Assembly (NCBI GenBank): GCA_964392665.1
Contig: CAYMQB010000010.1
Coordinates: forward strand, 895 to 64,894
DNA from: an uncultured bacterium
GTDB lineage: Bacteria; Hydrothermota; E44-bin80
Reading direction: 5' to 3'
Length of the DNA stretch: 64,000 nucleotides
Each line of letters starts with the position of its first letter. Position 1 is the stretch's first letter. Of the stretch, positions 2,023 through 23,303 are shown in pieces. A program made the translations under genes and the position numbers. Under the pieces are notes generated by a model. That model searched no databases, was not told where the DNA came from, and worked only from the letters and a program-made list of their open reading frames with translations.

Positions 2023-2953
2023 TTTCTTTGTCCTTGTGTTCCATATTAAGAGCCGAGCGTAACGCAGCAAATCCAACCTCAAGTTGCGCTGGTGTTGGTT
2101 CTTTTGTCGTTACATATTGAAATGCAAGTCCGGGACTTAGCAAGATTTTAAGCAATCTATTCTTTGGATGTTTTCCGGCGAATTTAATAATTTCATAAGA
2201 TGTTCCTACAAGGAAAGGGAGAAAAAGCAAATGTATGCCAAGTCTGAGTAACTTCACAGAAGGTATTCCCCACACGCCAAAAATGAATGTATCAAGAACT
2301 GCAAAGAATATGATTGCAACGATAAAAACAATGAAAATAAAGGAAGTGCCACAGCGAGGGTGTTTGGTTGAATAGCATGAACAGTTTTTTTCTGTGAGTT
2401 CTTTGCCATCTTCCCAGCAGAAGATAGATTTGTGCTCTGCTCCGTGGTACTGGAAAAGACGTTTAACATCGGGGATAAATGATATTATCAAAATGTAGAG
2501 GATAAAGAAAATAATCCTGATTAATCCTGCAAGAATATTAAAGGTCACAGGTTTTGTATCCAAACCTGTTTTACTTGCTATAAATATGGGGAGAAATAAA
2601 AAGATGAAAAGTGCCAGGATTATTGCAAGGAAAGAGATTATCCCCGAGAGGAAGCCCTCATGGCGTTTTTTTTTGTTCTTCTGCTGTTGCTCGAAAGCAA
2701 TTTCTGCTGAGTAGTTAATTGCATTGATACCTTCGTATAGCATTTCGGCAAGTGCTACTATTCCTCTTACAAGGAACAACTTAAAGAATTTGATTTTTCT
2801 TAGCATTTCGTTACGCTTATGAGAATGAAGCACAATGTTTCCGTTAGGGGCTCTGACCGCGATTGAAACCTTTTCCGGTGATATCATCATTACGCCTTCA
2901 ATTACAGCCTGTCCACCTACATTAGTTTTTTTCATAGACGCAATATACAGCAT
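2015..2953 (-). CDS. DUF1385-family membrane protein
   Basis: 312 aa. N-terminal soluble segment 'GGQAVIEGVMM' followed by several hydrophobic helices; overlaps the prfA start by 8 nt, so co-transcription is likely. Confidence 0.55.
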   Translation of the reverse strand: MLYIASMKKTNVGGQAVIEGVMMISPEKVSIAVRAPNGNIVLHSHKRNEMLRKIKFFKLFLVRGIVALAEMLYEGINAINYSAEIAFEQQQKNKKKRHEGFLSGIISFLAIILALFIFLFLPIFIASKTGLDTKPVTFNILAGLIRIIFFILYILIISFIPDVKRLFQYHGAEHKSIFCWEDGKELTEKNCSCYSTKHPRCGTSFIFIVFIVAIIFFAVLDTFIFGVWGIPSVKLLRLGIHLLFLPFLVGTSYEIIKFAGKHPKNRLLKILLSPGLAFQYVTTKEPTPAQLEVGFAALRSALNMEHKDKEND

Positions 2954-3109
2954 AATTTCATTTATGTCAACCTTTTGGTAGTTATTTCAGGTTTTTTCTG
3001 AAAACATTGCGTTACGAATGTACATAATTTAACCACAAGGTTCCTTGGTTTGTGTAAAAATTACTGGGCTATTTATTTTGCTTGACTTTTATATGAGAAT
3101 AGGTTAAAT

Positions 3110-5128
3110 TTGAAAATAGTAATGAAGAAAATAGAAAAATTCAGAAGATTACATGAGATTTCGACTGTTTTGCTAACCGAGAAAAAGCTCGATCGAGTTC
3201 TCGATGCAATTGTAAAAAATGCTGCGGAGTTTTTTGCTGCGGATGCCTGTTCTATCCTGCTTTTTGACGAGAATCGCGAATTCTTAACTATTGCAAATTC
3301 ATACAGGCTGTCAAAAGCATATGTTAAAATTGTAAGGGTTCGGTATGATGAAGAGGTTGCGGGAAAGGTTGTAAGCAAACAAAAGCCGATCATTATTCCT
3401 GACCTCGACAACTTGTTTGCATCATTTGGTGACGATCTATCTATAAAGTGGTTTAGGAAGGAAGGCTTGGTTTCCTGCGTAGATGCACCGGTAGTTGTAA
3501 ACAAGAAATCCATTGGGTGTTTGAACCTTTATTACAAGAAAAAGTTTACCTTTAGAGAGAGGGATCTGGATGTGCTAAAAGTATTTTGTGATTTTTCTGC
3601 AATAGCAATTTACAATGCGGATCTTATTAAAAGAATAAAGGATGAGCTAAAAGAAAGGGCAACACTGGAGAATGTGAGTCTTATCTTGACATCGACACTT
3701 AGATTAAGAGAAGTGCTAAAAGCATTAATATCTAGCGCTGTTGAATTGACTGGCACAACCAAAGGTAGTATACTTTTAGTAGATGAGAAAAAACGAAGGA
3801 TTGTAGAAGCGTACAATTACAATAAAAAAGGCAAGAAATTTGAATCGTATTCAAGTACAGCCAGGTTAAATAGAGGTATTTCCGGCAAGATTCTAAAGAC
3901 AAAACAGGCTATTTCAATCGATAATCTCAGCAAACTAAGGGGAGTAAATCCTACGGCGGTGAAGAAAAAACGAAAAGGCGTTCTTGTTGTTCCAGTACTT
4001 ATCGAAGGAAAGGTAATTGCAATACTGTATGTTGATTCGCTAAAGCCCAGAATTTTCACGAAAAGGGATATTAGACTGGTTTCTGCTCTTACGAATCAAG
4101 CTGGAGTGGCTATTGAGAATGCAAGATTGTATGCGCAGGTTGAGCGGAAAATAAGAGATTTGTCTATTTCCTACAGAATCAGTCAAGCTTTGATATCTAC
4201 TATCGATCTTAATGTGCTTCTGTCGAAAATTTTGGAGGAACTCAAGGAAGCATTTGGTTATTCGAATCTTGCAATACTACTCGTAGATCGCGAAAGCAAT
4301 AAACTTGTATTCAAAGCAGCAACCGGTTATCCAGAGAAGATAAAGAAGATGATGTTAACAATTGGCAAGGATGGTATCACAGGTTATGTTGCTGCGAAAG
4401 GAAGGACTTATTATTCAAAGGATGTTCTGAAGGATAAACATTATATAAAGGGAATTGCAAATGTGAAATCCGAAGTTACCATTCCCTTGAAAATCGGAAA
4501 AAAAACTACAGGAGTTCTCAATGTTGAAAGCAAAGAGTATAACGATTTCGATGAATGGGAAATTAAACTTCTGTCATCCATTGCAGCGCAGATCGCCAAT
4601 GCCATTGAAAAATCGAGACTATATGAAGAGTCCAAGATGCTTTCCTTAACCGATCCTCTTACTAATCTTCCAAATAGAAGGCACTTTGATATCGTGGTCG
4701 ATGCAGAACTCAGAAAATCCGAAAGGTATAACAGACCTTTGAGCTTATTGCTCATGGATTTTGACAATTTCAAGCAGTATAATGATAAAAACGGTCATAT
4801 TGCCGGAGATAAGGTTCTTATTGAATATGCAAAGGTTATGAAATCATATGTTCGCAACATAGACCTTATCTGCAGATATGGAGGGGATGAGTTTATTGTC
4901 GTTTTACCGGAGACAGATGAAATTTATGCCAGGGGGGTTGCGGAAAGAATTCGCAAGAAAATACACAATAAGAGCAAGAAAATGGGTATAACCCTCAGTG
5001 TTGGAATCTCTACATATCCAGTCGATGGTGAGGAGAAGACAGCACTGATTAGGGCATCTGACAAGGCTTGTTACACTGCCAAGGAAGGGGGAGGGGATTG
5101 CGTAAGAAGCGTGCTGGATCAAAAATAG
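3110..5128 (+). CDS. Diguanylate cyclase with tandem GAF sensor domains (GAF-GAF-GGDEF)
   Basis: 672 aa; C-terminal GGDEF domain with an intact 'RYGGDEFIV' active site and 'LTDPLTNLPNRRHFD' linker; N-terminal ~450 aa look like two GAF-like domains. Confidence 0.8.
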   Translation: MKIVMKKIEKFRRLHEISTVLLTEKKLDRVLDAIVKNAAEFFAADACSILLFDENREFLTIANSYRLSKAYVKIVRVRYDEEVAGKVVSKQKPIIIPDLDNLFASFGDDLSIKWFRKEGLVSCVDAPVVVNKKSIGCLNLYYKKKFTFRERDLDVLKVFCDFSAIAIYNADLIKRIKDELKERATLENVSLILTSTLRLREVLKALISSAVELTGTTKGSILLVDEKKRRIVEAYNYNKKGKKFESYSSTARLNRGISGKILKTKQAISIDNLSKLRGVNPTAVKKKRKGVLVVPVLIEGKVIAILYVDSLKPRIFTKRDIRLVSALTNQAGVAIENARLYAQVERKIRDLSISYRISQALISTIDLNVLLSKILEELKEAFGYSNLAILLVDRESNKLVFKAATGYPEKIKKMMLTIGKDGITGYVAAKGRTYYSKDVLKDKHYIKGIANVKSEVTIPLKIGKKTTGVLNVESKEYNDFDEWEIKLLSSIAAQIANAIEKSRLYEESKMLSLTDPLTNLPNRRHFDIVVDAELRKSERYNRPLSLLLMDFDNFKQYNDKNGHIAGDKVLIEYAKVMKSYVRNIDLICRYGGDEFIVVLPETDEIYARGVAERIRKKIHNKSKKMGITLSVGISTYPVDGEEKTALIRASDKACYTAKEGGGDCVRSVLDQK

Positions 5129-7865: not shown

Positions 7866-8681
7866 TTGTGCATAATGCTAATCCTCCATTATCTTGGTAA
7901 TGCATTCTTCCATACGCTTCAAACCATTTTACTATTTCTTCCTGTTGTTGCATCCTGCATCGTTATTGAAATATTTTCGACATTTGCCAATAGACGGCTT
8001 GGAAAAAAGTTTGGCTGGTGCGGAATTCTACCTTTTGCCATTGTAGGTACGCCAATACACGAATTGAGTCATGCAGTAGTTGCTTTTCTCACCGGGCACA
8101 GAATACAAGAACTTGCCCTTTTTAAACCAAATCCACTAACCGGTGAATTGGGGCACTTGAAACATTCGTGGAATGATAGAAATCCCATTCAGAAATACAT
8201 AGGCAATCCTTTAATAGCAATAGCACCATTTTTTGGAGGTTCGCTTGTTCTCTATCTTCTCACAAAACTGCTTATGCCCCAACTTATCGCAGGCAATTCG
8301 CTGTCAGCGCTTTCTTCAAATCTGCTGAAGGACTTTTCGCAATTCAGGCTCTACATCGGCGCGCTTTTTTCGGCAACAGCTTCAATGTTACGAATATTCT
8401 TTAACTGGCGAAATCTCCTGAGTATTAGATTTTACATTTATGTTTTAGTTGCTTTCGGGATAAGCTTACATCTTACACCATCGAGACAGGACTTCTTTCA
8501 CTTCTGGACATATCTTTTCGGGCTTCTCATTATGATTTTCGTTTTAAATCTTGTTTTTCCGAATTTTATCGTTTTTCTTGAAATTCACTTTGTTGGTTTC
8601 ATTTTAAAATTGCATCCTTTGCTTTCACTGGCTGCTTTTTTTAGTCTCGTTAGCGCCCTGATAACAGGTTTTCTCTTGTGA
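7866..8681 (+). CDS. Polytopic membrane protein with an HExxH zinc-metalloprotease-like motif
   Basis: 271 aa with at least 6 hydrophobic helices; 'PIHELSHAVVAF' HExxH motif next to a TM segment, DUF3267-like; starts 1 nt after the upstream stop. Confidence 0.4.
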   Translation: MCIMLILHYLGNAFFHTLQTILLFLPVVASCIVIEIFSTFANRRLGKKFGWCGILPFAIVGTPIHELSHAVVAFLTGHRIQELALFKPNPLTGELGHLKHSWNDRNPIQKYIGNPLIAIAPFFGGSLVLYLLTKLLMPQLIAGNSLSALSSNLLKDFSQFRLYIGALFSATASMLRIFFNWRNLLSIRFYIYVLVAFGISLHLTPSRQDFFHFWTYLFGLLIMIFVLNLVFPNFIVFLEIHFVGFILKLHPLLSLAAFFSLVSALITGFLL

Positions 8682-8753
8682 GCAAATGAAGATTTTTCAT
8701 TGCAGCAGATTCCTCCGAACTGCAAATTCCCAGAATGTAGTTTAACAAATTGC

Positions 8754-8782
8754 TTGACTATGTCATTTTCATATAGTATAAA
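8754..8782 (+). promoter_or_regulatory. Sigma-70-like promoter (TTGACT, 17-nt spacer, TATAAA) for the CBS-antiporter pair
   Basis: TTGACT at 8754-8759, 17-nt spacer, TATAAA at 8777-8782; strong SD AAGGAGG at 8811-8817 before the ATG at 8825. Confidence 0.35.
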
Positions 8783-8824
8783 TTTTGACGCATGGAATTT
8801 AAGGGAAGATAAGGAGGAAATTCA

Positions 8825-9082
8825 ATGCGAAACTTCGAGAAGTTAAAAGTCAAAAATGTGTGGAAAACTATTTCAAAAAAGGCAACTACTGTCCGAATGG
8901 ATGCTGATATCGATGAGGCTATGCATCACCCTATATTCGTTTATGAAAATGACTTGCTTTTGAAAATTCTCAAGAGTATGGTGGATGAAAAGGTTCAGGA
9001 ACTACCTGTTGTTAATAGCGAGAAAAAAATAATTGGAGATTTGAACTGCCTTGAAATACTGAAAGGGTTCTGGAAGTTGTAG
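8825..9082 (+). CDS. Small standalone single-CBS-domain protein
   Basis: 85 aa; 'ELPVVNSEKKIIGDLNCLEILKG' looks like a CBS motif; its stop TAG overlaps the GTG start of the downstream antiporter (TAGTG), suggesting translational coupling. Confidence 0.45.
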   Translation: MRNFEKLKVKNVWKTISKKATTVRMDADIDEAMHHPIFVYENDLLLKILKSMVDEKVQELPVVNSEKKIIGDLNCLEILKGFWKL

Positions 9083-10290
9083 TGGAAACATTTGCCTATA
9101 TTTTTTTACTCGTAGGTATTTCTACCTATCTCGGGCACCTTGCGCGGAGAGTAAAACAACCTGAGATTATAGGGGAGATTCTCGGCGGAATTATCCTCGG
9201 TCCGGTAGTTGCTATTATTGCCACTTTACTGTTTCACGAAGGACATAGCATTCACATTTTCTTATCGTCAGAATATGCAAGCACAAAACTCATATCCCTT
9301 GTCGATTTTGCTGGTATTATGATAATGTTTGGTGCCGGGCTTGAAACGGATCTGTCGGCACTATTTTCTGCTGCAAAGAATGGTTTATTTGCGGCTATAG
9401 GTGGTGTTGTTTTACCATTTGCGCTGGGTTTGTTTGTCGGTAAGTATTTCCTTCATTTGGGACTTCTCGCTTCGCTTTATTTAGGTGCGGCTGTTTCCAT
9501 CACAGCCGTTGCTCTCAGCATTGCAACTTTGATACAGCTAAAGAAACTTTCGACGAAGGTTGGAATGAGTATTGTTATTGCTGCAGTAATCGATGATATT
9601 CTAGGGGTTATGATTTTATCGGTTATAATGAATATGACCAGGGGCGAGGGGAGTTTTTCAGTCAAGCATGTCTTTATTATGTTTATAATAGCCGCAGTGT
9701 TTGTAGTTTTTAGCGTCTTACTTGGGCATTTTGGAAAGAAATGGCGAAAGCATTTTCGTTTCGGAACGATATCAACGCAAGAAAGGCTATCGTTCTTTCT
9801 GCTTTTTCTTTTTCTTTTCTCCATTGTTTCGCATTTTGCCGGTCTTCATCTTGTTATTGGAGCATTTTTGGCAGGACTAATTCTGGGCCCCTTTCTTAAA
9901 ATGCGAGAGAAAGAAAATCTAAGCAACTGGATATGGGGATTGTTTGCTCCTCTCTTCTTTGCCTGGGTGGGTTTTTCCGTTCAATTCTCCGCAGATGCGT
10001 TCGGTATGGCTTTGCTACTTATTGTTGCAGCGGCATTTATCGGAAAAATTGTAGGAGCGGGTTTGGGTGCACTTTGTTCGGGTATAAGACCGATGGAATC
10101 ACTCGCAGTGGGAATAGGTATGAATGGAAGGGCAGCTGTTGAACTTATAATAGCGGAAATTGCTTTAAGAAATGGCGTTATTGGACGGAATATTTTTTCC
10201 TCGGTAGTTTTTATGGCTATCCTTGCGGCTATTACAACTCCGTTACTGCTGAAACTAATGGCTTCCAGGATAACTACGCCTGCCCGATGA
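9082..10290 (+). CDS. CPA2-family monovalent cation:proton antiporter (Kef/NapA-like)
   Basis: 402 aa with 11-13 TM helices; N-terminal 'LGHLARRVKQPEIIGEILGGIILGP' is typical of the Na_H_Exchanger family; GTG start. Confidence 0.75.
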   Translation: METFAYIFLLVGISTYLGHLARRVKQPEIIGEILGGIILGPVVAIIATLLFHEGHSIHIFLSSEYASTKLISLVDFAGIMIMFGAGLETDLSALFSAAKNGLFAAIGGVVLPFALGLFVGKYFLHLGLLASLYLGAAVSITAVALSIATLIQLKKLSTKVGMSIVIAAVIDDILGVMILSVIMNMTRGEGSFSVKHVFIMFIIAAVFVVFSVLLGHFGKKWRKHFRFGTISTQERLSFFLLFLFLFSIVSHFAGLHLVIGAFLAGLILGPFLKMREKENLSNWIWGLFAPLFFAWVGFSVQFSADAFGMALLLIVAAAFIGKIVGAGLGALCSGIRPMESLAVGIGMNGRAAVELIIAEIALRNGVIGRNIFSSVVFMAILAAITTPLLLKLMASRITTPAR

Positions 10291-10603
10291 ACTTATCCAA
10301 TTTTAGAATACCGATTTTGCAAATTTCTTCAAGATTTGAGTCTTTTACGGTATCCTTTAGTAGCGCATTAATCTTTTCTCCAGTACCCTCATCATCCGTA
10401 AATGAAAGAATAACCTTGGTATAAGCTCTTTTCCCTTCTATCTGGCTTCTCAATCCTGCAAATATGGGAACTTCGTAAGCGAGATAACGACTCATTGATT
10501 GCGCTTCAATCACTGAAGTTTCTTCTGCGCCTAATTCCGTCAATATTGAGATAATCTCGTCGAGATACTCGGCTTTGTATAAAAAAAGTACGAGCAGATA
10601 CAT
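10274..10603 (-). CDS. P-II-like (GlnB-fold / DUF190-like) small regulatory protein
   Basis: 109 aa; the N-terminal half 'LLVLFLYKAEYLDEIISILTELGAEETSVIEAQSMSR' matches the GlnB beta-alpha-beta pattern (KIEAIIKPFKLDDVREAL...GITGMTVTEV.G.GR); last gene of a minus-strand unit beginning with a CPA antiporter. Confidence 0.4.
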   Translation of the reverse strand: MYLLVLFLYKAEYLDEIISILTELGAEETSVIEAQSMSRYLAYEVPIFAGLRSQIEGKRAYTKVILSFTDDEGTGEKINALLKDTVKDSNLEEICKIGILKLDKFIGQA

Positions 10604-10806
10604 TTTACATCTCCTTTTCCCACGGCTGTGGTCTCTATCTCTTCTCTTGTTTGTGTAAGAACCTCAACCATCTCTTTTATGATTGAGTTATTATCCTCAC
10701 CGGTAAGTTGCGGTATTATATTCTCCTTTTTCACATAATCTCCTGATAGCACTTTAGCTCCCCCTATTTCGTTTTTTGCCTGATTCTCCGGCTTTTGTGA
10801 TTGCAA
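10540..10806 (-). CDS. Hypothetical small ORF between the antiporter and the P-II-like gene
   Basis: 88-aa ORF overlapping both neighbours by 53 and 64 nt; no recognisable motif; may be shorter (internal Met at 10671) or non-coding. Confidence 0.2.
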   Translation of the reverse strand: MQSQKPENQAKNEIGGAKVLSGDYVKKENIIPQLTGEDNNSIIKEMVEVLTQTREEIETTAVGKGDVKCICSYFFYTKPSISTRLSQY

Positions 10807-11974
10807 ATTTTGTCGAAAATGGTCCTACAAGTTCGGTTACAATAGTTGTCCCGAGAGCAATGGCAACGATCTCTGCAGAGTACTGCGGAAAGTCCTTTGC
10901 TGCTATAAGGCAGAGTCCTATTGCTATCCCTGCCTGAGAAAAAAGGCCTAAGCCCGTATATTTTCTTACGACTTTGGGAGATTTCGAAATAGTAGCCCCT
11001 AAGTAAGCTCCGAGAATCTTCCCTGAAAACCTGCCAAGTAGATACCCAATAGCTACAAAACCTAGTTTAAATAGTTTTCCTAATTTCAACCTTGCTCCAG
11101 CAAGAACAAAATATATGATAAAAAATGGATAACTGAAACCTTCGATCGAGGAGAATATTTGCCTTTTATGTCTTGAGAAATTGGAAATGAAGAAACCCAT
11201 AGTCATACTTGCAAGCAAGGGAGAAAATCGCATACCCCAGAGTTTGTATTCTAACAGACCTGCGAAAAAAACCATAACTCCAAGTGAGGCTGTTAGTATC
11301 TCTGCTTTGAATCGAAGCATCTTGAAAATTTGATTGAGCAGAAAAGCAGCAAAAATACCAACCGAAATTGACACTATAAGGGAACCAAGGACGCGGAAAA
11401 TCAAAAATACAATAAAAATATGTTCAGACCCTACTATTGCGTGAACTATAGATGAGGATACTGCATAAAGTGTCAAACCCAGAGCATCGTCGAGTCCGAC
11501 ACAAGCGAGTAAAGTTAAACTCAACGGTCCCTTCGCTTTGAGTTCTTCGAGAACCAGTACGGTCACGGCAGGAGCAGTTGCCGAACCGAGTGCTGCAACG
11601 AGCAAAGACATCGGAAAAGAGAGCTTAAAAAGCAGTAAAAAGAAAAGTATGAGGAAAAATGTAAAAAGGGTTTCAAAAACGACTATTATGATTATTTTCT
11701 TCCCGAGCTTTTTGAACATACTTGTCTTCAATTCTCCGCCAATGCTGAAAGCTACTATTATGAGGGCGAACTCGATTAACCACCCTAATTTTTTATTCAT
11801 TGCTTCCGGTATTAGCTGAGAGAAAGAAACGCCGATTGCTATTCCAATAAGGATGTATCCGGTAACTGCAGGAACTTTAACTTTTGCGAGAAGTTTAGCT
11901 GCAAGAAAACCAAAAAATAGAATTGAACCAATCGTTAAAATATCATTCATTTTGCAATAGATTAATACTTTCAA
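10754..11974 (-). CDS. CPA-family cation:proton antiporter (Na+/H+ exchanger family)
   Basis: 406 aa with 11-12 TM helices; 'GYILIGIAIGVSF' and 'SIGGELK' segments are typical of Na_H_Exchanger; likely true start 'MNDILTIGSI' (11950). Confidence 0.7.
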   Translation of the reverse strand: MKVLIYCKMNDILTIGSILFFGFLAAKLLAKVKVPAVTGYILIGIAIGVSFSQLIPEAMNKKLGWLIEFALIIVAFSIGGELKTSMFKKLGKKIIIIVVFETLFTFFLILFFLLLFKLSFPMSLLVAALGSATAPAVTVLVLEELKAKGPLSLTLLACVGLDDALGLTLYAVSSSIVHAIVGSEHIFIVFLIFRVLGSLIVSISVGIFAAFLLNQIFKMLRFKAEILTASLGVMVFFAGLLEYKLWGMRFSPLLASMTMGFFISNFSRHKRQIFSSIEGFSYPFFIIYFVLAGARLKLGKLFKLGFVAIGYLLGRFSGKILGAYLGATISKSPKVVRKYTGLGLFSQAGIAIGLCLIAAKDFPQYSAEIVAIALGTTIVTELVGPFSTKFAITKAGESGKKRNRGS

Positions 11975-12140
11975 ATAGTCGAAGGAATTTATAACTACTT
12001 TCCTTTTTTGTCAAGAAGTAAATGCTCGAAACGCAGGATTAAATTACCGGAAACACATTCTTTTTGCAAGTATTTTCCCTTGACAATGCACAGAATTTGT
12101 GGTAAAGGAGCAGGAGAAAAGAAGTTGTCTGGAGGTAAGA

Positions 12141-13379
12141 TTGAAAAAAATAATGGTAATTATTTTTGCATTGATTCTTTGTAGTTCGGTTCTTTCATAC
12201 TCGCAGGTTTCCGAAATGAGTAAGGAGTATCTGATTATGCAATCGCTGAGGAATGCTTCTCTTGCACCAGTAACATACACTCTTGGTCCCGGGGACGGAA
12301 TTGTATTGAACCTCTGGGGAAACACCAATGCAACATACAAACTTTCGGTATCACAAGATGGTAGCATATTTATCCCAAAATCATCCGGAGTTACCGCTTC
12401 GGCTATTCCTTTGTCAGCATATTCAGGAATTTCATCCTCTGAAAATGTGCCTTCTCTGGGAGAAGTCTATGCAGAAGGACTAACATTAGAGGAATTGAAA
12501 AAGGAGATTGAAAACAGGGTAAGCAAATATTTTCACGGTGTAAATGTTAATGTCTCGCTAACACGTTTGAGGATGTTTTCTGTTTCCATCCTTGGAAGCG
12601 TGAGGGACCCGGGTGTTTATTCAATAACACCCCTGTATAGATTATCAAACCTGCTTGACGTTGCAGGCGGAAATACGCCAACCGGGTCATACAGAAAAAT
12701 AACAATCAAAAGTGCGGATGGTTCATCAAAAACATACGACCTTTATCAGTTTCTATATAAGGCGAATTTAGAGGAGAATCCTTATATCAAAACTGGTGAT
12801 ATTGTGATGGTTCCACAGGCTCTTATGAGTGTTAAGGTAATGGGAAGGGTTTACAAACGAGGGAACTTTGAATTAAGAGAAGGGGAAAGGTTAAAAGATT
12901 TGATTGAATTTGCAAGAGGATTCCAGAGCAGGGGTTCATTGACAAGGCAAATTAAGGTTTATAACATAAAAAGTCCGGATGAAGTGGAAGAAATCGACCC
13001 GTATAAGCTTCTTATCGAGAATGACAGTTTAAGCAACATAGAGCTCAAAACAGGTGATGTTGTGACGGTTCCAACGGAGCCTTTCACAGTAACCGTTGTA
13101 GGTCAGGTAACTTTAGGCGGAAGTTTTGAATATGAGCCAGGAGCAGATTTTAACTACTACCTTGGTCTTGCCGGTGGTTATGGAGAGCGGGCAAACGAAG
13201 GCAATGTTCGTATAACAAGATGGGATGGAACAAGACTGAAATGGAAGACCGGTGTTGAGATAAAACCTGGCGATACAATAGTTATTGGGAGAGCCGAACT
13301 TAAAGGATGGAAAGATTACTTAGAGGTTACACTGAATGCTGCCAACCTACTCTTTATTATCTGGACCGTCTCAAGGTGA
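12141..13379 (+). CDS. wza: Polysaccharide export protein (Wza/KpsD family, Poly_export + SLBB domains)
   Basis: 'LGPGDGIVLNLWGN' Poly_export motif and repeated 'TGD-V-VP' SLBB-like segments. TTG start at 12141 is proposed because GGAGG lies 5 nt upstream and it yields a clean signal peptide 'LKKIMVIIFALILCSSVLS'; the ORF-track ATG is at 12099. Confidence 0.7.
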   Translation: MKKIMVIIFALILCSSVLSYSQVSEMSKEYLIMQSLRNASLAPVTYTLGPGDGIVLNLWGNTNATYKLSVSQDGSIFIPKSSGVTASAIPLSAYSGISSSENVPSLGEVYAEGLTLEELKKEIENRVSKYFHGVNVNVSLTRLRMFSVSILGSVRDPGVYSITPLYRLSNLLDVAGGNTPTGSYRKITIKSADGSSKTYDLYQFLYKANLEENPYIKTGDIVMVPQALMSVKVMGRVYKRGNFELREGERLKDLIEFARGFQSRGSLTRQIKVYNIKSPDEVEEIDPYKLLIENDSLSNIELKTGDVVTVPTEPFTVTVVGQVTLGGSFEYEPGADFNYYLGLAGGYGERANEGNVRITRWDGTRLKWKTGVEIKPGDTIVIGRAELKGWKDYLEVTLNAANLLFIIWTVSR

Positions 13380-13436
13380 AATCGCGTTTTTGGGAAGACA
13401 AAATTAGCTGCTTTTACACACATAAATCATAATAGT

Positions 13437-14450
13437 TCAGTCCTTTGTGTAGTTCCAGTATTCTTTGATATCTCTGCCAATCAATTCCGACAGTCCTCTA
13501 TTTTCCTTAAAAAAAAGTCTTTCTAAGAATCTTCTTGTTTCAATTTTCATTTTTGGGTATGACTTATTACTTGTGAAGTTAAATTTGCAATCGAGTTTGT
13601 CCATTCTTCTCCAGAACCTATTGGGTTTTGTCTTTGATAAATTGGGAAGATGTGAACCAAATTGTTGAGTAACGAGACGTTGAGTTCGGGAAATATAGTT
13701 ATAAAATATTTGGAGTTTTATGTAGCGGGGAATCATTGTTGCATTTTTATGGGTGTCAATTTTACTTATGTCTATGCTCGTCCTTAATCCAAGAAATTTG
13801 CATATTTCATCGATGTTCTGCTGAGTATTTTTTATGAAGTCTTCGAAGATTATAAATTTCATTTGTGAATCCGGAAAATAGTTTTTGTATCTTTCTATCT
13901 GCTGTTTATAAAGACTTCTTTTTAAGAGAGTTCCAGGCATATATCGAAGTGTGTTTTCAAAATCATAAATTGCATGTCCACCACGGACCAGATGCCAATA
14001 GTTAGAATATGTTCGAGAAACTGGGTTTCTTAACATAAATATAAGCTTTACATTGGGTATCAAATTGGCTATACGAGAAGGAGCTTTTGAAGATGCCATA
14101 TAAGTCGTTGAATCTTCACCTATTAATTGCCCTTTTTTCGCTTCCCTAAAGAATGATTTATACCACTTTAGATATTCTTCGAAATTCGTTTTGTAGTCGA
14201 AAAATTGCCATTCCTTAGATGTTTGAACGAAAAAATCGAAATTTTGCTCAATGTCATCTATGTCAAAAAACATTATTTCTCTATTTGGTATAAAAATGTC
14301 TTTGTGTTGGCTTAGAATGTAGTGAAGAGAAGTTGTTCCCGCTTTCATTGCACCAACAATAATAAAGGCAGGCAACCCTTGCCCATCTTTACCAAGCCTT
14401 CTCCCGTACTTTATATTTTTTTCATTCATACAGAATAAGAATTTACACAA
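13437..14450 (-). CDS. Sulfotransferase-domain protein (PAPS-dependent)
   Basis: 337 aa; 5'-PSB P-loop-like 'FIIVGAMKAGTTSLHYIL', then 'RNPVSRTYSNYWH' (3'-PB region); sits inside a polysaccharide locus. Confidence 0.7.
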   Translation of the reverse strand: MCKFLFCMNEKNIKYGRRLGKDGQGLPAFIIVGAMKAGTTSLHYILSQHKDIFIPNREIMFFDIDDIEQNFDFFVQTSKEWQFFDYKTNFEEYLKWYKSFFREAKKGQLIGEDSTTYMASSKAPSRIANLIPNVKLIFMLRNPVSRTYSNYWHLVRGGHAIYDFENTLRYMPGTLLKRSLYKQQIERYKNYFPDSQMKFIIFEDFIKNTQQNIDEICKFLGLRTSIDISKIDTHKNATMIPRYIKLQIFYNYISRTQRLVTQQFGSHLPNLSKTKPNRFWRRMDKLDCKFNFTSNKSYPKMKIETRRFLERLFFKENRGLSELIGRDIKEYWNYTKD

Positions 14451-14522
14451 AAAAATGCTTTTGTCAAGTTCTATCTTGAAATGTAAGCATGAGCTCTATT
14501 ATACGGTTGTCGCAAAAAGGTC

Positions 14523-14551
14523 TTGACTGCATTGAGTTTATGTGTTACTAT
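14523..14551 (+). promoter_or_regulatory. Sigma-70-like promoter for the wzz-wzy-wzx-GT operon
   Basis: TTGACT at 14523-14528, 17-nt spacer, TACTAT at 14546-14551; followed by a ~170-nt leader. Confidence 0.4.
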
Positions 14552-14654
14552 TTATGCGAGTAAAAATAAGGAGAGATGCGTATAGGCTCGTAAATGTTTG
14601 TGTCATAAATGAATTGAGATTTTCGGTTAAATGTGACACATATGTTGAATCGAG

Positions 14655-14696
14655 CCCGGTTGTTTCCGGGGACCCCAAAACGGGTCTCAGTTTTTT
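14655..14696 (+). promoter_or_regulatory. Leader hairpins and intrinsic-terminator-like structure (candidate attenuator) 25 nt upstream of wzz
   Basis: Hairpin 1 is CCCGG-TTGTTT-CCGGG (14655-14670). Hairpin 2 is GACCC-CAAAAC-GGGTC (14671-14686), followed by TCAG and a T6 run (14691-14696). Hairpin 2 plus the T-run resembles a rho-independent terminator lying between the promoter and the wzz start. Confidence 0.3.
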
Positions 14697-14721
14697 ATCA
14701 AAAAGTTGAGTAGGAGAGAAA

Positions 14722-15960
14722 ATGAAAGATAAAGAAAAATTGGATTTCTGGATATTTCTTGAAACATTTTTTAAGTGGTGGAGAGTCATTGTGTTCAATG
14801 TTTTGATAATAACTCTTTTAACAGTGGTCATAAGTCTTGTGCTGCCAAAGAAGTGGGAGGCAACAACTGTCATTTTACCTCCATCGCTATCTTCGACTTC
14901 TTTGAATGTGGAAGATATAGGTTCTACTTATGCATTAAGTTCGATGGCATTATCTGCTCTGCCTGGCATTATTTCGCCTTCCGATATTGTTGCTGGTGTA
15001 TTACAAAGCGAAACAATTAAGAAGAAAATTATTGACCGTTTTAACCTTATGAAAATTTTTAAGGCAAAGAGACTGGAGACGGCATTCAAGAAAGTTGACA
15101 AAATGACGAGTATTTCGGTTACAAAAGAACAAATGGTAAAAATCAAAGTTACAACAAGCAAGCCTCAGCTTTCAGCCGACATCGCAAATGCATATGTAGA
15201 GGAAATAGATAGATTTAACAGGGATGTGTTGATGACAACAGGTAAGCAATTTAGGGTGTTTCTTGAAAAAAGGCTAAAAGAAGCTGAAGAAGAGTTAAAA
15301 ACTGCCGCAGAATCATTGAAGTCATTTCAAGAAAAAAATAAGGTATTTTCACTTGAGGTTGAAACAAAAAAGTCTATTGAGTTGCTTGGCAGTCTTCAAG
15401 GCCAGATAATTGCAAAAAAGGTGCAACTGAATGCTTTGAAAAGTTACTCATATAAAGGTAATCCTGGAATTGTGAAACTGGAGAAAGATATTTCTGCTCT
15501 GGAGAAACAGTTGAAGGAACTTGAGTACGGAAAAGAGGTAAAAGACAAGAAAAAGAGAAAGGACTTTGGTGTTGGTTTTTCTTTTCCATTGAATGAAGTT
15601 CCAGAGATTGGATTAAAACTAACAAAACTTGAGATGAATATTGAGGTGAAAAAAACAGTATATGCACTCTTGGCAGAACAGTATGAAAAAGCGAGAATTC
15701 TTGAATCAAAAGATACTCCAACAATCACGGTTCTTGACAAAGCACGGGCACCCGAGCTGCGAAATTTCCCTAAAAGAAAAAAAATGGTGGTTATCGCTTT
15801 TATACTGAGTGTATTCTATGGATTTGGACTTGCGGTTGTGTGTGAGGTTTTGGAAAGAATTAAAAGTAGCCATGACAAGTATTATAGATTTTTCTCCATC
15901 GTTGACAAATTTCTCACGGAAATAAGACCAATTTTAAGGAAGTTTAGGATAAAAAAATGA
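14722..15960 (+). CDS. wzz: Polysaccharide chain-length determinant / co-polymerase (Wzz/GumC-like, no kinase domain)
   Basis: 412 aa; N-terminal TM 'WRVIVFNVLIITLLTVVISLVL', long coiled-coil periplasmic region, C-terminal TM 'MVVIAFILSVFYGFGLAVV'. Confidence 0.65.
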   Translation: MKDKEKLDFWIFLETFFKWWRVIVFNVLIITLLTVVISLVLPKKWEATTVILPPSLSSTSLNVEDIGSTYALSSMALSALPGIISPSDIVAGVLQSETIKKKIIDRFNLMKIFKAKRLETAFKKVDKMTSISVTKEQMVKIKVTTSKPQLSADIANAYVEEIDRFNRDVLMTTGKQFRVFLEKRLKEAEEELKTAAESLKSFQEKNKVFSLEVETKKSIELLGSLQGQIIAKKVQLNALKSYSYKGNPGIVKLEKDISALEKQLKELEYGKEVKDKKKRKDFGVGFSFPLNEVPEIGLKLTKLEMNIEVKKTVYALLAEQYEKARILESKDTPTITVLDKARAPELRNFPKRKKMVVIAFILSVFYGFGLAVVCEVLERIKSSHDKYYRFFSIVDKFLTEIRPILRKFRIKK

Positions 15961-17423
15961 AACTGGCTGGATTTTGGAATTTCATTTTTCCCTTTGTCCC
16001 CGATAATAGAAAACAAGTATATTCATTTCTTATCTTCTTTATTATCTGTCTTCAGATATGTGCAATTTCACTGCTTTTTCTCGATATCTCTTTTTCTAAA
16101 TTTCTTTTTGTTGCTGGTTTTCTACCGATTCTTATTCTGCTACTTTCGTCTGCGGAGAATTTCTTTATTTTTATTGTGATATACAGTTTCTGCTTTCACC
16201 TTGATTCTTATGCTCATATCTTCAAAGGAGTTATTTCCGTGAGACTATCGTGGAAAAATCTTTATGCTTTATACGCTATTTTTCTTGTATACTGGATTTT
16301 TTCAATAATTTTACGGAAAACAAAAGTGAGAATTGGAGCTTTAGGTTGGTCAATCATTATTTATGTGAGCATTGCTGTTCTTAGTTTTACTTACGGATTA
16401 TTTAACGGATACTATTCAAGCATGGTGGCTCTACAGAGGAGCGAAATATTCCCTCAACTGATGTACCTTGGTTTTTTTGTCTTTATTACTACCAAATTGA
16501 GGCAGATAAACAGAAAAATAATATTTGATTTTTTCCTTTTCGCTTCAACATTTATCGGTCTGCAACTTATTTATGCGTTTTCTAAGAATAGTATAGCTGC
16601 TTTCACGCGGATTAACACAATTACTGTACAGATATCTTTGCTTGCTTTTCCTTATGTCCTTGGTATCTTCTACTTCACAAAAGGAATTAAGAGGAAAATT
16701 ATCTTTCTAATTGCTTTACTCCCTATATCGTTAGGTGTTCTTATTTCACTCCAGAGGAGTCTTTGGTTAGCGGTTATTGTAGTCTTTGTTGGTTCTCTTT
16801 TTATATACTTTTATAAGAAAGGATTTTCTTTTACCAAAATTGTCGGGCTATTAATTGCAGGAATAATAGGTTCTCTCGTTATGCTTACACTTGCGGTCTG
16901 GGGTTTATCAAGGATTACTTCAGGTGCGGCAGTATTGGTTTTATTAAGACGATTTATAAGCCTTTCGAACATTCAATATCTTCAAGTTGATACTTCTGGT
17001 TTTGTTAGGATGACAGAGATAAGGCAAGCGTTATCGAAAATTCATGGAATTCAATGGTTTTTCGGACGAGGAATAGGGGATACTTTCTATTCTTTTCTTA
17101 GAACAAAGACAAAGACTTATTTCGATAATAGTTATGCGTGGGTGTTGTGGAAGATGGGTATCATCGGATTAATATCATTTCTAAGTATGTTTGTTATATT
17201 CTTTCGGAGAGCACTTTTTGTCCTGAGAAAATGTACTGACAAAAACGATTTAATACATACAATGACAATTTCGTTGAATATGCTTGGAATTATGATTTGT
17301 TCCCTTGGCAATGCTTCTTTGATACAGTTCAGATACATAATTGTCTGGTCAGTTTCAATGGCAATGATGGAAATTATTTACAGAAAATATAAATATGAAA
17401 CTTCTGCTAACCTGCTCAAATGA
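15957..17423 (+). CDS. wzy: O-antigen polymerase / ligase-like polytopic membrane protein (Wzy-type)
   Basis: 488 aa with about 11-12 TM helices and a large loop; lies between wzz and wzx; start overlaps the wzz stop by 4 nt. Confidence 0.5.
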   Translation: MKLAGFWNFIFPFVPDNRKQVYSFLIFFIICLQICAISLLFLDISFSKFLFVAGFLPILILLLSSAENFFIFIVIYSFCFHLDSYAHIFKGVISVRLSWKNLYALYAIFLVYWIFSIILRKTKVRIGALGWSIIIYVSIAVLSFTYGLFNGYYSSMVALQRSEIFPQLMYLGFFVFITTKLRQINRKIIFDFFLFASTFIGLQLIYAFSKNSIAAFTRINTITVQISLLAFPYVLGIFYFTKGIKRKIIFLIALLPISLGVLISLQRSLWLAVIVVFVGSLFIYFYKKGFSFTKIVGLLIAGIIGSLVMLTLAVWGLSRITSGAAVLVLLRRFISLSNIQYLQVDTSGFVRMTEIRQALSKIHGIQWFFGRGIGDTFYSFLRTKTKTYFDNSYAWVLWKMGIIGLISFLSMFVIFFRRALFVLRKCTDKNDLIHTMTISLNMLGIMICSLGNASLIQFRYIIVWSVSMAMMEIIYRKYKYETSANLLK

Positions 17424-18432
17424 ACATCCTGGGGTAAAGACTCATCTTCTTCAACTGAAAAAAGTCTGGGGAAACAATTCTGTTTTTTATCCAGTAGAAG
17501 AACTCGTAACTTTTTATCCCGATTATCGAAAAACGAAAATAAAGGTGCCAAAAGTAAAGAGTCTTCTAAAAACAATATCAAGACTTCGTTTCTCCCGCAA
17601 ATGTTTGGATTTTGGAGATAATATCATTTTAGGAAGCTGGAAAGTTTATTATTCTGAAATCATTAAAAAATTAAATAAACTGGGTATACGACCAAGTATT
17701 TTGTGGTGTAGTACTCTTGGGCAAAGTGAAATGACCTGGAAGGCTGAACTCGAGCCGCTTAACAAGATATTTGAGCTGTTAAAAAAGGGAGCCATACGTT
17801 ACTTGCTTGTTCCAGAAAAAACATACGAGTCATTGCGATTCATCAATAATGTTGAATATCTTCCGCATCCTCTTGATTTATCTACACCTTTGAAATTCAA
17901 GGAAATCAATCTCTGGGGGAAAAATATTGACCTTTTCATGGAAGCCAGACCAGGGAAAAATGTTCTTCAGCAGTTGGCAGCACAAAAATACACGAAATCA
18001 GCTTTTCGTTTACATACTAACATAAGAAATGACACAGTTCTCAGTATTGCGCGGAAACTCAATCTTTCGTTTATTCAATATCCTTGGTTAGCGGAAAAGG
18101 AATACTATGGATTAATAAAAGCAATGGATTTAAGTTTGCAGGTAACCTGGACAGAAAGTTTTAACTATGCAGTTTGTGAGAGAATGATTCTTGGAATCCC
18201 AACGCTTGTTTCCTCTGAAATATTTCTTGTTAGCAAAGACGCTTTTCTTAAAAAATATCTTGTTGTTAAAACTCCTGATTCTCCCAGTGTAATCGCAAAA
18301 AAGATAGACTTTCTTTTTCACAATCAAAGCTTAAGAGCGGAAATTAAGCATCGGGGGAAAGAAAGAGTCAAAACTATTGGGAGAAGATATAACAGGATGG
18401 TCAGAGATCAGATAAAAATCCTTTTTAGTTAA
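17395..18432 (+). CDS. Divergent glycosyltransferase-like protein (degenerate GT4/GT1 C-terminal domain)
   Basis: 345 aa; C-terminal 'ESFNYAVCERMILGIPTLVS' aligns with the Glycos_transf_1 'EGFGLV-LEAMA-G-PVIAT' motif; N-terminal half unrecognisable. Confidence 0.3.
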   Translation: MKLLLTCSNEHPGVKTHLLQLKKVWGNNSVFYPVEELVTFYPDYRKTKIKVPKVKSLLKTISRLRFSRKCLDFGDNIILGSWKVYYSEIIKKLNKLGIRPSILWCSTLGQSEMTWKAELEPLNKIFELLKKGAIRYLLVPEKTYESLRFINNVEYLPHPLDLSTPLKFKEINLWGKNIDLFMEARPGKNVLQQLAAQKYTKSAFRLHTNIRNDTVLSIARKLNLSFIQYPWLAEKEYYGLIKAMDLSLQVTWTESFNYAVCERMILGIPTLVSSEIFLVSKDAFLKKYLVVKTPDSPSVIAKKIDFLFHNQSLRAEIKHRGKERVKTIGRRYNRMVRDQIKILFS

Positions 18433-18434
18433 TT

Positions 18435-19889
18435 ATGTATACGGAAATTAAAAAATTAGTAAAACATTCAAGCATATATTCTTTTGGGAGTTTAAGTGGA
18501 CACATTCTCTCGTTTCTTTTGTTACCGGTATATACAAGATTGCTCACGACAGAAGAGTATGGAATTCTTGCAATAATAGGAGTGTTCCGCACAATTGTTC
18601 AAAGAGTAGTAAATCTAGGGACTCAGTCTTCGGTTGTCAAAGTATATTTTGAAGTGGACAACACAGAAAAGAGGAAAGAAGTCACCTCAACTGCTTTTAT
18701 TTTCCTCACAGTTATTGCGGGTATTTTTACACTTTGGTTCTGGCTTTTCAGGGAGAAATTATCAATATTTTTGCTTGATTCACCGCATTTTAGTTTTCTA
18801 TTCTCTTTCGCTCTCATTACATCGTTCTTTTATATAATTAAAACTGTTCCTCTTTCAGTTTTTCGTGCTCAGGGACGAGCATTCACCTACACAATATTTG
18901 CTTTTCTCACGCTTGTTTTGGGACTTTTATTCAATATTATTTTTGTAATTATCTTCCGCGAAAATGTAACAGGGATACTCAAAAGCTCTTTACTCAGTCA
19001 CGTCATAGTTTTTGTACTGGTTCTCATTCCTTTTTGGAAGAACTTTGTGTTTAAGTTCAAAAAAGAATATTTGTCACGAATGTTGAGTTTTGGTTTGCCA
19101 ATAGTTCCGTCAGGCCTTGCTATCTGGATATTGACGCTACTCGACAGATATTTTCTTAAAGTCTTTGCTGATATGGAAACAGTTGGTATTTATTCACTTG
19201 GGTATAAAATAGCAACAATAATGAGTATGCTGGTTATTGTCCCATTCTCAATGGCATGGAGTCCACTTATGCTAAGATGGTATAAGCAGAAAAAGGCGAA
19301 AGAACTCTTTACTAAAACATTTAAGTATTTTTCAGTTTTTGGATTTTTCCTTGTTCTTGCAATTTCACTTTTTTCAAAAGATATTATTCATGTTATGACA
19401 ACACCAGCTTTTTTTGATGCATATAAAATTGTATATTTTATAACTCTTGCTTATCTTTTTCAGGGATTCTATATGATATTTACTACAGGGTGTACTTTCG
19501 TAAGGAAGACCTATTATTTCCCTATTGCCACAGGAGTGGCTGCCGGATTGAACACAATTTTAAACATACTGTTAATTCCAAAATATCAAATGATAGGAGC
19601 CGCAGTTGCGACTGTATTTTCCTATTTGGTTATGACTATACTTATGTATTTATTTTCTGAAAAATATTACCACATTCCGTTTGAATTCAACATTAGCCTA
19701 AAAATTTTCTTTGTTACGACAGTTCTTTATATTGCCGGATTATTCATTGGAGGCAAACTTGTGACTATTGTTGTTATTAAGCTCATGCTTCTTGTTGGTT
19801 TTTTTGTGTTTCTTTTCTTATTCAAGGTTTTTAACAATCAAGAAATTGCTTATGCAAAGGCGTTTTTGAGAAAGAGGAAAAGCGTATGA
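18435..19889 (+). CDS. wzx: Polysaccharide flippase (Wzx, MOP superfamily)
   Basis: 484 aa with 12-14 TM helices; N-terminus 'SIYSFGSLSGHILSFLLLPVYTRLLTTEEYG' is typical of Polysacc_synt/Wzx. Confidence 0.7.
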   Translation: MYTEIKKLVKHSSIYSFGSLSGHILSFLLLPVYTRLLTTEEYGILAIIGVFRTIVQRVVNLGTQSSVVKVYFEVDNTEKRKEVTSTAFIFLTVIAGIFTLWFWLFREKLSIFLLDSPHFSFLFSFALITSFFYIIKTVPLSVFRAQGRAFTYTIFAFLTLVLGLLFNIIFVIIFRENVTGILKSSLLSHVIVFVLVLIPFWKNFVFKFKKEYLSRMLSFGLPIVPSGLAIWILTLLDRYFLKVFADMETVGIYSLGYKIATIMSMLVIVPFSMAWSPLMLRWYKQKKAKELFTKTFKYFSVFGFFLVLAISLFSKDIIHVMTTPAFFDAYKIVYFITLAYLFQGFYMIFTTGCTFVRKTYYFPIATGVAAGLNTILNILLIPKYQMIGAAVATVFSYLVMTILMYLFSEKYYHIPFEFNISLKIFFVTTVLYIAGLFIGGKLVTIVVIKLMLLVGFFVFLFLFKVFNNQEIAYAKAFLRKRKSV

Positions 19890-21232
19890 AAATTTTGCAA
19901 GTCACGATAGGTTTTCCGCCCTATCAAACTGGAGGAACTGACCATCTTTCTTACTTGTTATCTTTTGGACTTGAACAAAAAGATGATGTAGAGTTATATG
20001 TTTTATCTGGAAGGTTGCCGAGAGATTACACGGCTGATATAGAGAGCGAAATATTTGAAAATATGAGAGTTCGGCGTGTTCATTCCTCACGGAGAAAATT
20101 CCTCGAAAGTAGAGTTCCTAATGTAGAAATATCAACCTATAAAAATCTCTACTACGAAGGATTGTTTGAGAAATTTATAAAAGAGCTTAAACCAGATATA
20201 GTTCACTTTCAGCATACAATAGAACTATCTACTTCACTAATACATATCGCCAAACGGTATGCCAATAAAACAATAGTTTCATTACAGGATTTTTGGTATT
20301 TTTGTCCTCGTATTCATTTGTTGAAGCTTGATGGGGCGGTTTGCAGCGGTCCCGAATTCGGATTCAATTGTTACTATTGTAGAACCAAAAATAATGTTAG
20401 TTGTCGAGGATTGCACACATATAAGAGTTCTCGTGGTAAGATTATCTCGAAAATCCCGTTACCTATAAAAACATTCCTGAAAGATAGAATTCAGAGAAAA
20501 CAGTATTATAGAACTGAAAGAGAATACGGTAAAATATTGCCTTTTATTTCCAGATATTATTATGTTATGGAAACATTAAAAAGCGCAGATTATATTCTTT
20601 CGCCATCACGGTTCTTGAAGGAATCATATGTTAAGATCGCGAAAATTAATCCTTCGTCTGTTCTGACGATTCCGCTTGGTATTGTTCCATTTAGCATTAA
20701 GAAGAAAAATTCGTTTTCAAAACCTGTTTGCTTTGGTTTTGCTGGTTCACCTTCAAAGCATAAGGGTTCACAACTCTTATTTGATGTTTTCAAGAAAATT
20801 CCTGAGGATAAGGCAAAGCTTGAAATCTGGGGGAAAGGTTGGGAAGCTTTCTCTAAAAAAGCAAGATTATCAAAAAACATCGATTTTAAGGGAGAATATA
20901 CCCATAGGAATATTGGTGAAGTTTTTTCTTCATTTGATGTATTGGTTATTCCATCTATTTGGGGAGAAACATTTTCCTTCGTTGCTCACGAAGCATTCTA
21001 TGCGAAAATGCCCGTGATAGCTTCAAATATTGGTGTTTTTCCGGATATAATCCAGGACGCGAAGAATGGTTTCCTCTTCAATGTAAACGATAGCGAATCA
21101 CTGTTAAAAAGTATTAATATAATAGTTGAGAATCCTGAGATGATAAAGAAACTGTCAAAAAACATAGAGAAGCCAAAATCTGCAGAAGAATATGTAGATG
21201 AAATTTTCAGTATGTACAAGAACATATTGTGA
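19886..21232 (+). CDS. Glycosyltransferase family 4
   Basis: 448 aa; 'MKILQVTIGFPPYQTGGTDH' N-terminal GT4 motif; C-terminal 'ETFSFVAHEAFYAKMPVIASNIG' is the E-x7-E-like Glycos_transf_1 region. Confidence 0.7.
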   Translation: MKILQVTIGFPPYQTGGTDHLSYLLSFGLEQKDDVELYVLSGRLPRDYTADIESEIFENMRVRRVHSSRRKFLESRVPNVEISTYKNLYYEGLFEKFIKELKPDIVHFQHTIELSTSLIHIAKRYANKTIVSLQDFWYFCPRIHLLKLDGAVCSGPEFGFNCYYCRTKNNVSCRGLHTYKSSRGKIISKIPLPIKTFLKDRIQRKQYYRTEREYGKILPFISRYYYVMETLKSADYILSPSRFLKESYVKIAKINPSSVLTIPLGIVPFSIKKKNSFSKPVCFGFAGSPSKHKGSQLLFDVFKKIPEDKAKLEIWGKGWEAFSKKARLSKNIDFKGEYTHRNIGEVFSSFDVLVIPSIWGETFSFVAHEAFYAKMPVIASNIGVFPDIIQDAKNGFLFNVNDSESLLKSINIIVENPEMIKKLSKNIEKPKSAEEYVDEIFSMYKNIL

Positions 21233-23252: not shown

Positions 23253-23303
23253 TATTTTGTTTCAAAGGGATTGCAAGGTTAGTGGAATATTGTTAACAAG
23301 ATC

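Follow-up and report, generated by a model that had tools for sequence, protein, structure and literature searches.

How an antiporter that consists of little more than its membrane part is brought under cellular control is the question raised by positions 8825 to 11974 of the DNA presented above, a stretch of 64,000 nucleotides (nt; hereafter the window) from an uncultured bacterium of the Hydrothermota. To our knowledge, the control of cation/proton antiporters (CPA) without RCK domains is largely unknown. A first reading of this DNA, made from its letters alone (the sequence-only reading), had noticed two convergent CPA-family antiporters, each paired with a small stand-alone regulatory protein, one with a single CBS motif and the other resembling P-II. 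In the present study, we found that the region comprises two independent convergent transport units, each consisting of a CPA2-type antiporter and of soluble regulators that are transcribed with it and supplied in trans. In its intact form, unit A couples the translation of a CBS-pair protein to that of antiporter A, and unit B encodes, in this order, antiporter B, a PtsN-like EIIA-2 protein of the phosphotransferase system (PTS) and a P-II-like protein. In the organism of the window, three deletions have removed the greater part of two of the three regulators from one natural population, and what is left whole are both transporters and the P-II-like gene. We have high confidence in this anatomy, in the deletions and in the conservation of the module elsewhere. 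The pairing of small regulators with antiporters thus stands in that the genes are real, and falls in that two of the three are deletion remnants.

The 85-amino-acid (aa) protein at the head of unit A matches the Pfam CBS model (31.2 bits, cutoff 24) in one stretch, residues 32-74, and lacks two tandem CBS motifs, whereas its relative P0006 has two stretches and 55 bits. A word-indexed homologue search gave 4-5 close relatives per small protein, and the homologues of the 85-aa protein (P0006-P0009, 44-86% identity) are all 146-149 aa long with the full CBS pair kept. Alignment with them leaves a single clean gap of 64 columns in the window protein, which takes out most of the first CBS motif and the linker and retains the first 28 residues and the whole second motif; the DNA alignment to locus L005, the nearest intact relative, shows the same gene with a clean in-frame gap of 192 nt. 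Judged from these alignments, the 85-aa protein derives from a CBS-pair protein of 149 aa by the in-frame loss of 64 codons, and the proposed stand-alone "single-CBS" design dissolves into a lineage-specific 192-nt deletion of an ordinary CBS pair. The proposed coupling to the antiporter, on the other hand, is present in the sequence, the TAG stop and the GTG start overlapping by one base at 9080-9084, and is conserved in relatives, the end of one gene being the start of the next in L005, L093 and L095.

Orthologous CBS pairs lie directly upstream of a CPA antiporter in L014 (33% identity) and L016 (32%) as well, where the CBS-antiporter pair shares one operon with the EIIA-2 and P-II-like genes (E and P), all on one strand and, in L016, in the order CBS-A-B-E-P. 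The coupled pair occurs without the E-P unit in L092-L095, and in L056 (3-899) a B-type CPA antiporter carries a CBS pair fused at its C-terminus, the fusion counterpart of the window pair. A metagenome scan with the CBS-pair alignment returned 4 loci, the derived patterns being too specific. The presence of a CBS gene next to the antiporter in relatives, which the sequence-only reading had named as a check on itself, was borne out in L005-L008, L014, L016 and L092-L095. A CBS pair coupled to a transporter, as in these relatives (fused in L056), is the arrangement of the CBS (Bateman) transporters CorB/CNNM, MgtE, OpuA and ClC; the relatives differ from those in that the pair is a separate protein of 146-161 aa, translationally coupled upstream of the CPA antiporter, and the window protein differs further in retaining one CBS motif only. 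Antiporter A would then be left with half a Bateman module at best, and the surviving CBS reading frame may mainly serve translational coupling to it.

The small open reading frame (ORF) of unit B, which the sequence-only reading had left unidentified, turned out to be an EIIA-2 remnant, and EIIA-2 is the third component of the module and the most telling one. Its exact position is held in relatives by a 171-aa PTS_EIIA_2 gene (121.8 bits, Pfam), and the interval measures 149 nt in the window against 517 nt in the relatives. Translation of the interval gives the N-terminal part of EIIA (LSGDYVKKENIIPQLTGEDNNSIIKEMVEVL...TREEIETTAVGKGD) with one internal 15-codon gap; the IAIPH active-site motif and all that follows it down to the stop are lost, and the remnant lacks about two thirds of the domain. 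Aligned with L005, the DNA shows deletions of 45 nt and 323 nt (368 nt in total), of which the latter shifts the frame, so that the remnant continues for 64 nt within the P-II-like gene, whose Shine-Dalgarno sequence and ATG are untouched. The likely start of the remnant is the GTG at 10752, 2 nt past the stop of antiporter B, with a GGGGGAG Shine-Dalgarno sequence ahead of it; read from there, the remnant is 70 aa long. The small ORF as a whole gave no match in Pfam or NCBIfam; its 70-aa product has no Pfam match either and no full EIIA_2 domain of ~144 residues (PF00359), and the phospho-acceptor His of the [IV]A[IL]PH motif is absent from it, having been deleted; a custom hidden Markov model (HMM) made from the relatives' EIIA genes matches it at E 2.3e-7. 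On this comparison with its relatives, the small ORF is a pseudogene remnant of a PtsN-like EIIA-2 gene with the active-site His gone. Elsewhere in the module EIIA phosphorylation is probably retained, because none of the 44 stand-alone EIIA genes departs from the PH motif. For annotation, it follows that the "single-CBS" and "small ORF" features of this locus should be marked as remnants left by deletion, rather than as new regulators.

The deletions are genuine, since they recur identically in at least three independent metagenome assemblies. Window positions 8000-12100, both junctions included, are 100% identical to L089, L090 and L091 (JGI 3300031864, JGI 3300031620 and Logan SRR9700529), which derive from different samples and assemblers; a fourth assembly, L004 (JGI 3300031357), is 100% identical up to its contig end within the 109-aa gene, and the 85-aa and 109-aa proteins each occur on about 25 contigs, the 85-aa protein on 26. 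The syntenic relatives L005-L008, with 82-88% DNA identity and both flanks shared, show the undamaged arrangement, an intact CBS gene (149 aa) and antiporter (402 aa) converging on P-II-like (107 aa), EIIA_2 (171 aa) and antiporter (398 aa) genes.

Two other accounts of the shortened genes have to be weighed against a real loss of regulators. That the truncations are artefacts of assembly or sequencing, with full-length CBS-pair and EIIA genes present in the organism, is extremely improbable: the break of L004 inside the 109-aa gene, at the EIIA-deletion junction (window ~10543) and next to a T7 run, could be taken in its favour, but the three other assemblies are 100% identical through both junctions, 37 blocks of the collection contain the 85-aa protein in their index, and the junctions have no long DNA repeat whose copies could have collapsed. 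The break in L004 could reflect strain heterogeneity in that sample, with alleles that do and do not carry the deletion. More can be said for the idea that the shortened genes are functional minimal regulators, the 85-aa protein dimerising in a Bateman-like manner and gating antiporter A, and the 70-aa EIIA stump having taken a new role or serving as a leader peptide for coupling. The CBS deletion preserves the frame exactly and leaves one CBS motif complete (31 bits in Pfam), the stop/start overlap with antiporter A is still there, many samples show one and the same fixed allele, and the retained CBS part differs from L005 mostly synonymously, as far as the alignment can be read by eye. This synonymous bias, however, could equally stem from selection before the deletion or from the sister lineage, and the carriers of the deletion show no sequence variation that would reveal selection after it; furthermore, the relatives at 44-86% identity all keep the 146-149-aa pair, and the EIIA stump is frameshifted and has lost its invariant His. 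We therefore regard functional minimal regulators as unlikely, and retain the loss of most of two regulators as the reading of this locus.

The regulator that survived whole is the 109-aa protein, for which a GlnB/P-II-like pattern had been proposed; the proposal was borne out as to predicted fold and family, with the P-II model of Pfam left unmatched. The protein gave no Pfam or NCBIfam match, and the P-II model (PF00543) none at E<=1. An exhaustive profile search of 1.84 billion representatives yielded 189 family representatives at E<=1e-3, whose public records, where they carry a name, read "hypothetical protein" or, for fusions, "PTS sugar transporter subunit IIA". The AlphaFold2 model made from an alignment of 37 family members (pLDDT 88) predicts the order beta1-alpha1-beta2, helical hairpin (residues 37-55), beta3-alpha2-beta4, and in it the double beta-alpha-beta ferredoxin-like core of the P-II type. 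The best 50 matches of this model in a Foldseek search of the PDB are all GlnB, GlnK, GlnZ or SbtB (E 1.6e-4 to 1.7e-3). As for sequence, 5 of the 37 family members match the Pfam P-II model weakly (best E 5.5e-6) and one reaches Nit_Regul_Hom, a profile search of PDB sequences returned a series of P-II proteins at E 0.006-1, and hhalign against E. coli GlnB gave a probability of 57% and E 1e-4 over 31 columns of the alpha1-beta2 segment. From profiles and predicted fold, the 109-aa protein is an intact, divergent branch of the P-II superfamily, and its family is an unannotated P-II subfamily without a Pfam or NCBIfam model. A CorC-like or ACT-like identity was rejected, the sequence profiles and the better model pointing to P-II.

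The most conserved element of the family is the motif [LA]x[YF]xVPIFAGL (VPIFAGLR in the window), which occupies the T-loop position and in which F48 is invariant and P46 at least 90% conserved. Neither a flexible T-loop nor the B-loop motif T-G-x-x-G-D-G-K-I-F was found: the T-loop position is a predicted helical hairpin, and the sequence at the B-loop is G-x-G-[RK]-I in most members (PGVGRI) versus EICKIG in the window clade. The likeness to the P-II transporter regulators of GlnK-AmtB, SbtB-SbtA and P-II-NrtBCD lies in a regulator gene adjoining the transporter that it presumably controls and in an element at the T-loop position that is the most conserved of all. The 109-aa protein differs from them in having no Pfam P-II match, a VPIFAGL hairpin in place of the T-loop, a B-loop that is degenerate in the window clade and no C-terminal Arg residues; its partner, moreover, is a dimeric CPA antiporter instead of a trimeric channel or transporter, and in most lineages of the family there is an obligatory link to EIIA-2.

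This link emerged from a GTDB scan with one genome per species, which returned 80 loci, annotated with a custom ORF caller and clean HMMs; a P-II-like gene was called in 73 of them, which are the scorable ones. The 80 loci belong to Cloacimonadota, Omnitrophota, Planctomycetia, Latescibacterota, KSB1, WOR-3, Gemmatimonadota, Clostridia, Spirochaetes, Elusimicrobiota and Deferribacteres. Conservation of the P-II-like gene next to antiporters, another check named by the sequence-only reading, held well, a CPA antiporter lying on the same strand no more than two genes away in 58/73 loci. An EIIA-2 is beside the P-II-like gene or fused to it in 50/73 (a separate gene nearby in 36, a fusion in 14), antiporter and P-II-like gene form a pair without EIIA in 14 loci, and neither antiporter nor EIIA is nearby in 9/73, three of these nine being at a contig edge. 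With X for the antiporter, the gene orders comprise X-E-P, E-X-P, X-[E~P], X-X-P and X-P; the 109-aa protein has four close homologues, and every one of their contigs that could be read (L001, L002 and L003) has the first of these orders, with an antiporter of 393-399 aa, an EIIA_2 of 171 aa and a P-II-like protein of 104-107 aa. Among the longer matches of the library search that were scanned, 9 of 10 are EIIA_2~P-II-like fusions, and the reverse fusion P-II-like~EIIA_2 (268-319 aa) exists too, as do HTH_17~EIIA_2 proteins. The X-E-P genes relocate as a block, because they adjoin thrS-infC-rplT in L001 (1527-3566) and L002 (989-3030) and are absent from the syntenic CBS-antiporter site in L093 and L094. 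Some Omnitrophota and Planctomycetia loci (L026, at 1847-2554 and 2811-3770; L029, L050, L053 and L061) have extra EIIA-2 proteins upstream of the antiporter-P-II-like pair, of the types HTH_17~EIIA_2 (231-236 aa, a possible transcription factor) and N-terminal P-II-like~EIIA_2 (268-319 aa).

As to the transporters themselves, the claim of two convergent CPA-family antiporters is confirmed by their coordinates and by Na_H_Exchanger (PF00999) matches that cover residues 16-390 of 402 in antiporter A (164.8 bits) and 23-391 of 406 in antiporter B (98 bits), both above the curated cutoff of 26.2 bits. The CPA2 model TIGR00932 is the top NCBIfam model for both yet stays below its cutoff of 238.3 bits (A, 113.3 bits; B, 50 bits), and both are therefore taken as divergent CPA2-like proteins. 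Each has a DD pair where CPA1 has ND, IDDILG in A (D171-D172) and LDDALG in B (D162-D163), assigned to the ion-binding helix from position and motif only. No TrkA_N or TrkA_C (RCK/KTN) domain was found by Pfam in either antiporter or in the neighbouring genes, and both antiporters are "bare", a transmembrane domain without a fused cytoplasmic one, just as the sequence-only reading had it. They are old paralogues, seeing that they share only 26% identity; the DNA of antiporter A is 88% identical to L005. Antiporter B, the first gene of the antiporter-EIIA-P-II-like operon, likely starts at the ATG at 11950, which gives 398 aa as called in L089-L091, and a promoter scan placed a promoter-like site, TTGACA-17-TAAATT, ahead of it at 12014-11986. 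The antiporters that adjoin the P-II-like gene in relatives are mostly of the B type, and nearer to the A type in Cloacimonadota and the L017-L019 group. A CPA2 core controlled by cytoplasmic ligand-sensing modules is known from the Kef, KhtTU and CpaA antiporters, in which the modules are sometimes separate polypeptides (KhtT, KefF/G), as they are for the window antiporters; in place of RCK/KTN, these antiporters have a CBS pair, EIIA-2 and a P-II-like protein as sensors.

What could the intact unit B do? The closest functional precedent is the inhibition of E. coli YcgO/CvrA by PtsN (EIIA-Ntr). PtsN in its unphosphorylated state inhibits the CPA1 K+/H+ antiporter YcgO by binding to its CorC domain, and phosphorylation of H73 of PtsN releases YcgO (PMC11808508; bioRxiv 10.64898/2026.08.14.744764). 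In both cases an EIIA-2-family protein with a conserved phosphorylatable His is tied to a CPA antiporter, functionally in YcgO and genomically in the module, and the small alpha/beta cytoplasmic domain through which PtsN acts on YcgO would have the P-II-like protein as its small-domain counterpart. This gave rise to the thought that, in an intact unit B, unphosphorylated EIIA-2 would keep the antiporter inactive until phosphorylation of the conserved His releases it, with the P-II-like protein serving in trans as the small alpha/beta cytoplasmic domain via which EIIA acts. The P-II-like protein would probably bring in adenine nucleotides or another metabolite as a further input, and the VPIFAGL hairpin at the T-loop position would be the likely contact surface. 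In the strain of the window, the phospho-EIIA input to antiporter B would be gone and the P-II-like protein would be its sole controller, which would make unit B resemble the 14 natural X-P pairs that have no EIIA.

We put forward this two-sensor gate of phospho-EIIA and P-II-like protein, half dismantled in the window strain, as a tentative mechanism, slightly more doubtful than not; it is drawn from gene neighbourhood, domain fusions and analogy. Taken as one explanation in which anatomy and mechanism are blended, the whole appears to us reasonably probable. Several points weigh against it. YcgO is a CPA1 protein with fused RCK and CorC domains, whereas the antiporters here are CPA2-like, bare and with the DD motif, and CorC is replaced by a separate P-II-like protein as the small domain; ptsN is unlinked to ycgO, whereas the EIIA gene of the module stands in the antiporter operon or is fused, and in the window itself it is destroyed. 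The dimeric CPA antiporters and the trimeric P-II proteins do not match in symmetry, and for this reason a symmetric plug in the style of GlnK-AmtB or SbtB-SbtA is not expected. The degenerate B-loop of the window clade makes nucleotide binding appear uncertain, no EI or HPr/NPr gene was found within the 64-kb window, and the 85-aa CBS protein may be functional still.

The trimer/dimer mismatch, in that it argues against direct docking, also speaks for a different role of the P-II-like protein, namely that it acts on EIIA-2 only, for example on its phosphorylation, or on an unrelated target, and is merely transcribed together with the antiporter. Fusions of EIIA and P-II-like domains in both orders would fit this well, as would the E-P genes without an antiporter nearby in L015, L025 and L085; against it stand the 14 loci that pair antiporter and P-II-like gene without any EIIA, the intact state of the window P-II-like gene after the loss of EIIA, and the fact that the antiporter is the commonest neighbour (58/73), and we consider such a role rather improbable. 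The same holds for the hypothesis advanced by the sequence-only reading, a cation-efflux module responsive to cyclic di-adenosine monophosphate (c-di-AMP) in which the stand-alone CBS protein and a P-II-like protein of the PstA/DarA kind bind c-di-AMP made by CdaA and gate both antiporters. Other CPA2 systems, such as CpaA and KhtTU, are controlled by c-di-AMP, c-di-AMP receptors are known from the CBS and from the P-II-like families, and cdaA is in the window, as had been claimed, at 47914-48660 (DAC, 132 bits, with CdaA_N). Being ~37 kb away and near-universal in many phyla, however, cdaA is uninformative by its presence; in NCBIfam, the CBS remnant matches CbpB weakly (E 0.0015), with 18.5 bits against a cutoff of 125, an Rfam scan of the whole window detected no c-di-AMP (ydaO) riboswitch or any other Rfam family, and nothing labelled PstA/DarA appeared among the top structural or sequence matches of the 109-aa protein. 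The conserved partner, furthermore, is a PTS EIIA-2 domain, which points to an input from a phosphorelay. The c-di-AMP proposal, conceivable as it is, thus went unsupported, and we judge it improbable to a like degree. The plus strand around cdaA (44199-51787) encodes a 646-aa ORF (44199-46139), a 186-aa ORF (46147-46707), a pterin-binding FolP-like protein (46712-47914) and cdaA; an 840-aa TMEM260-like O-mannosyltransferase with TPR repeats follows them.

Returning to the gate by phospho-EIIA and P-II-like protein, its components and its logic are already known, namely the gating of transporters by P-II-like proteins, the control of a K+/H+ antiporter by PtsN and the placing of CBS domains on transporters. 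What is new here is an unannotated P-II subfamily tied, together with EIIA-2, to CPA2 antiporters in many uncultured phyla, and in the literature we found no description of a CPA antiporter-EIIA-P-II-like module or of an EIIA~P-II fusion. In its boldest form, which we offer as possible though somewhat doubtful, the proposal would be that this undescribed subfamily, with a VPIFAGL hairpin for a T-loop, is an obligate partner of PtsN-like EIIA-2 in gating bare CPA2 antiporters, and that the window lineage is a natural "EIIA-minus, half-CBS" mutant. If true, PTS-type phosphorelay and P-II signalling would be physically joined on one target of ion homeostasis, being fused in either order in several phyla. 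As far as we know, the control of a K+/H+ antiporter by PtsN has been worked out only recently and for one proteobacterial CPA1 protein; the conserved operon and the fusions across uncultured phyla suggest that the PtsN-antiporter logic is ancient and modular. The module thereby presents itself as a concrete and testable system of three proteins. Its erosion lowers the value of the window locus, which nevertheless serves as a natural "mutant".

All five ORFs were confirmed at the coordinates of Table 1, and they are real genes and not chance ORFs, because each has conserved homologues, in unchanged order, in other assemblies. The two units converge so closely that the 3' ends of antiporter A and the P-II-like gene overlap by 17 nt (10274-10290). 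A terminator scan found no terminator-like site between these two convergent genes, and transcription of the units should collide or give antisense overlap.

Table 1. Features of the two convergent antiporter units, in window coordinates.
Feature	Position	Strand	Length and match
Truncated CBS gene	8825..9082	+	85 aa; Pfam CBS 31.2 bits
Antiporter A	9082..10290	+	402 aa; CPA2-type; Na_H_Exchanger 164.8 bits
P-II-like gene, intact	10274..10603	-	109 aa
Small ORF, EIIA-2 pseudogene remnant	ORF 10540-10806; likely gene 10540..10752	-	70 codons from GTG at 10752
Antiporter B	10754..11974	-	406-aa ORF from TTG; Na_H_Exchanger 98 bits

Upstream, within the conserved syntenic block, lies a gene for a 672-aa protein (3110-5128) with three GAF domains and a GGDEF diguanylate cyclase domain. 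Directly downstream, a long same-strand cluster (12099-28003) has a GC content of 0.34-0.36, below that of its flanks, and its first genes match, in the syntenic relatives, the Poly_export/SLBB, sulfotransferase, Wzz and Wzy_C families, which include families of polysaccharide export and chain length.

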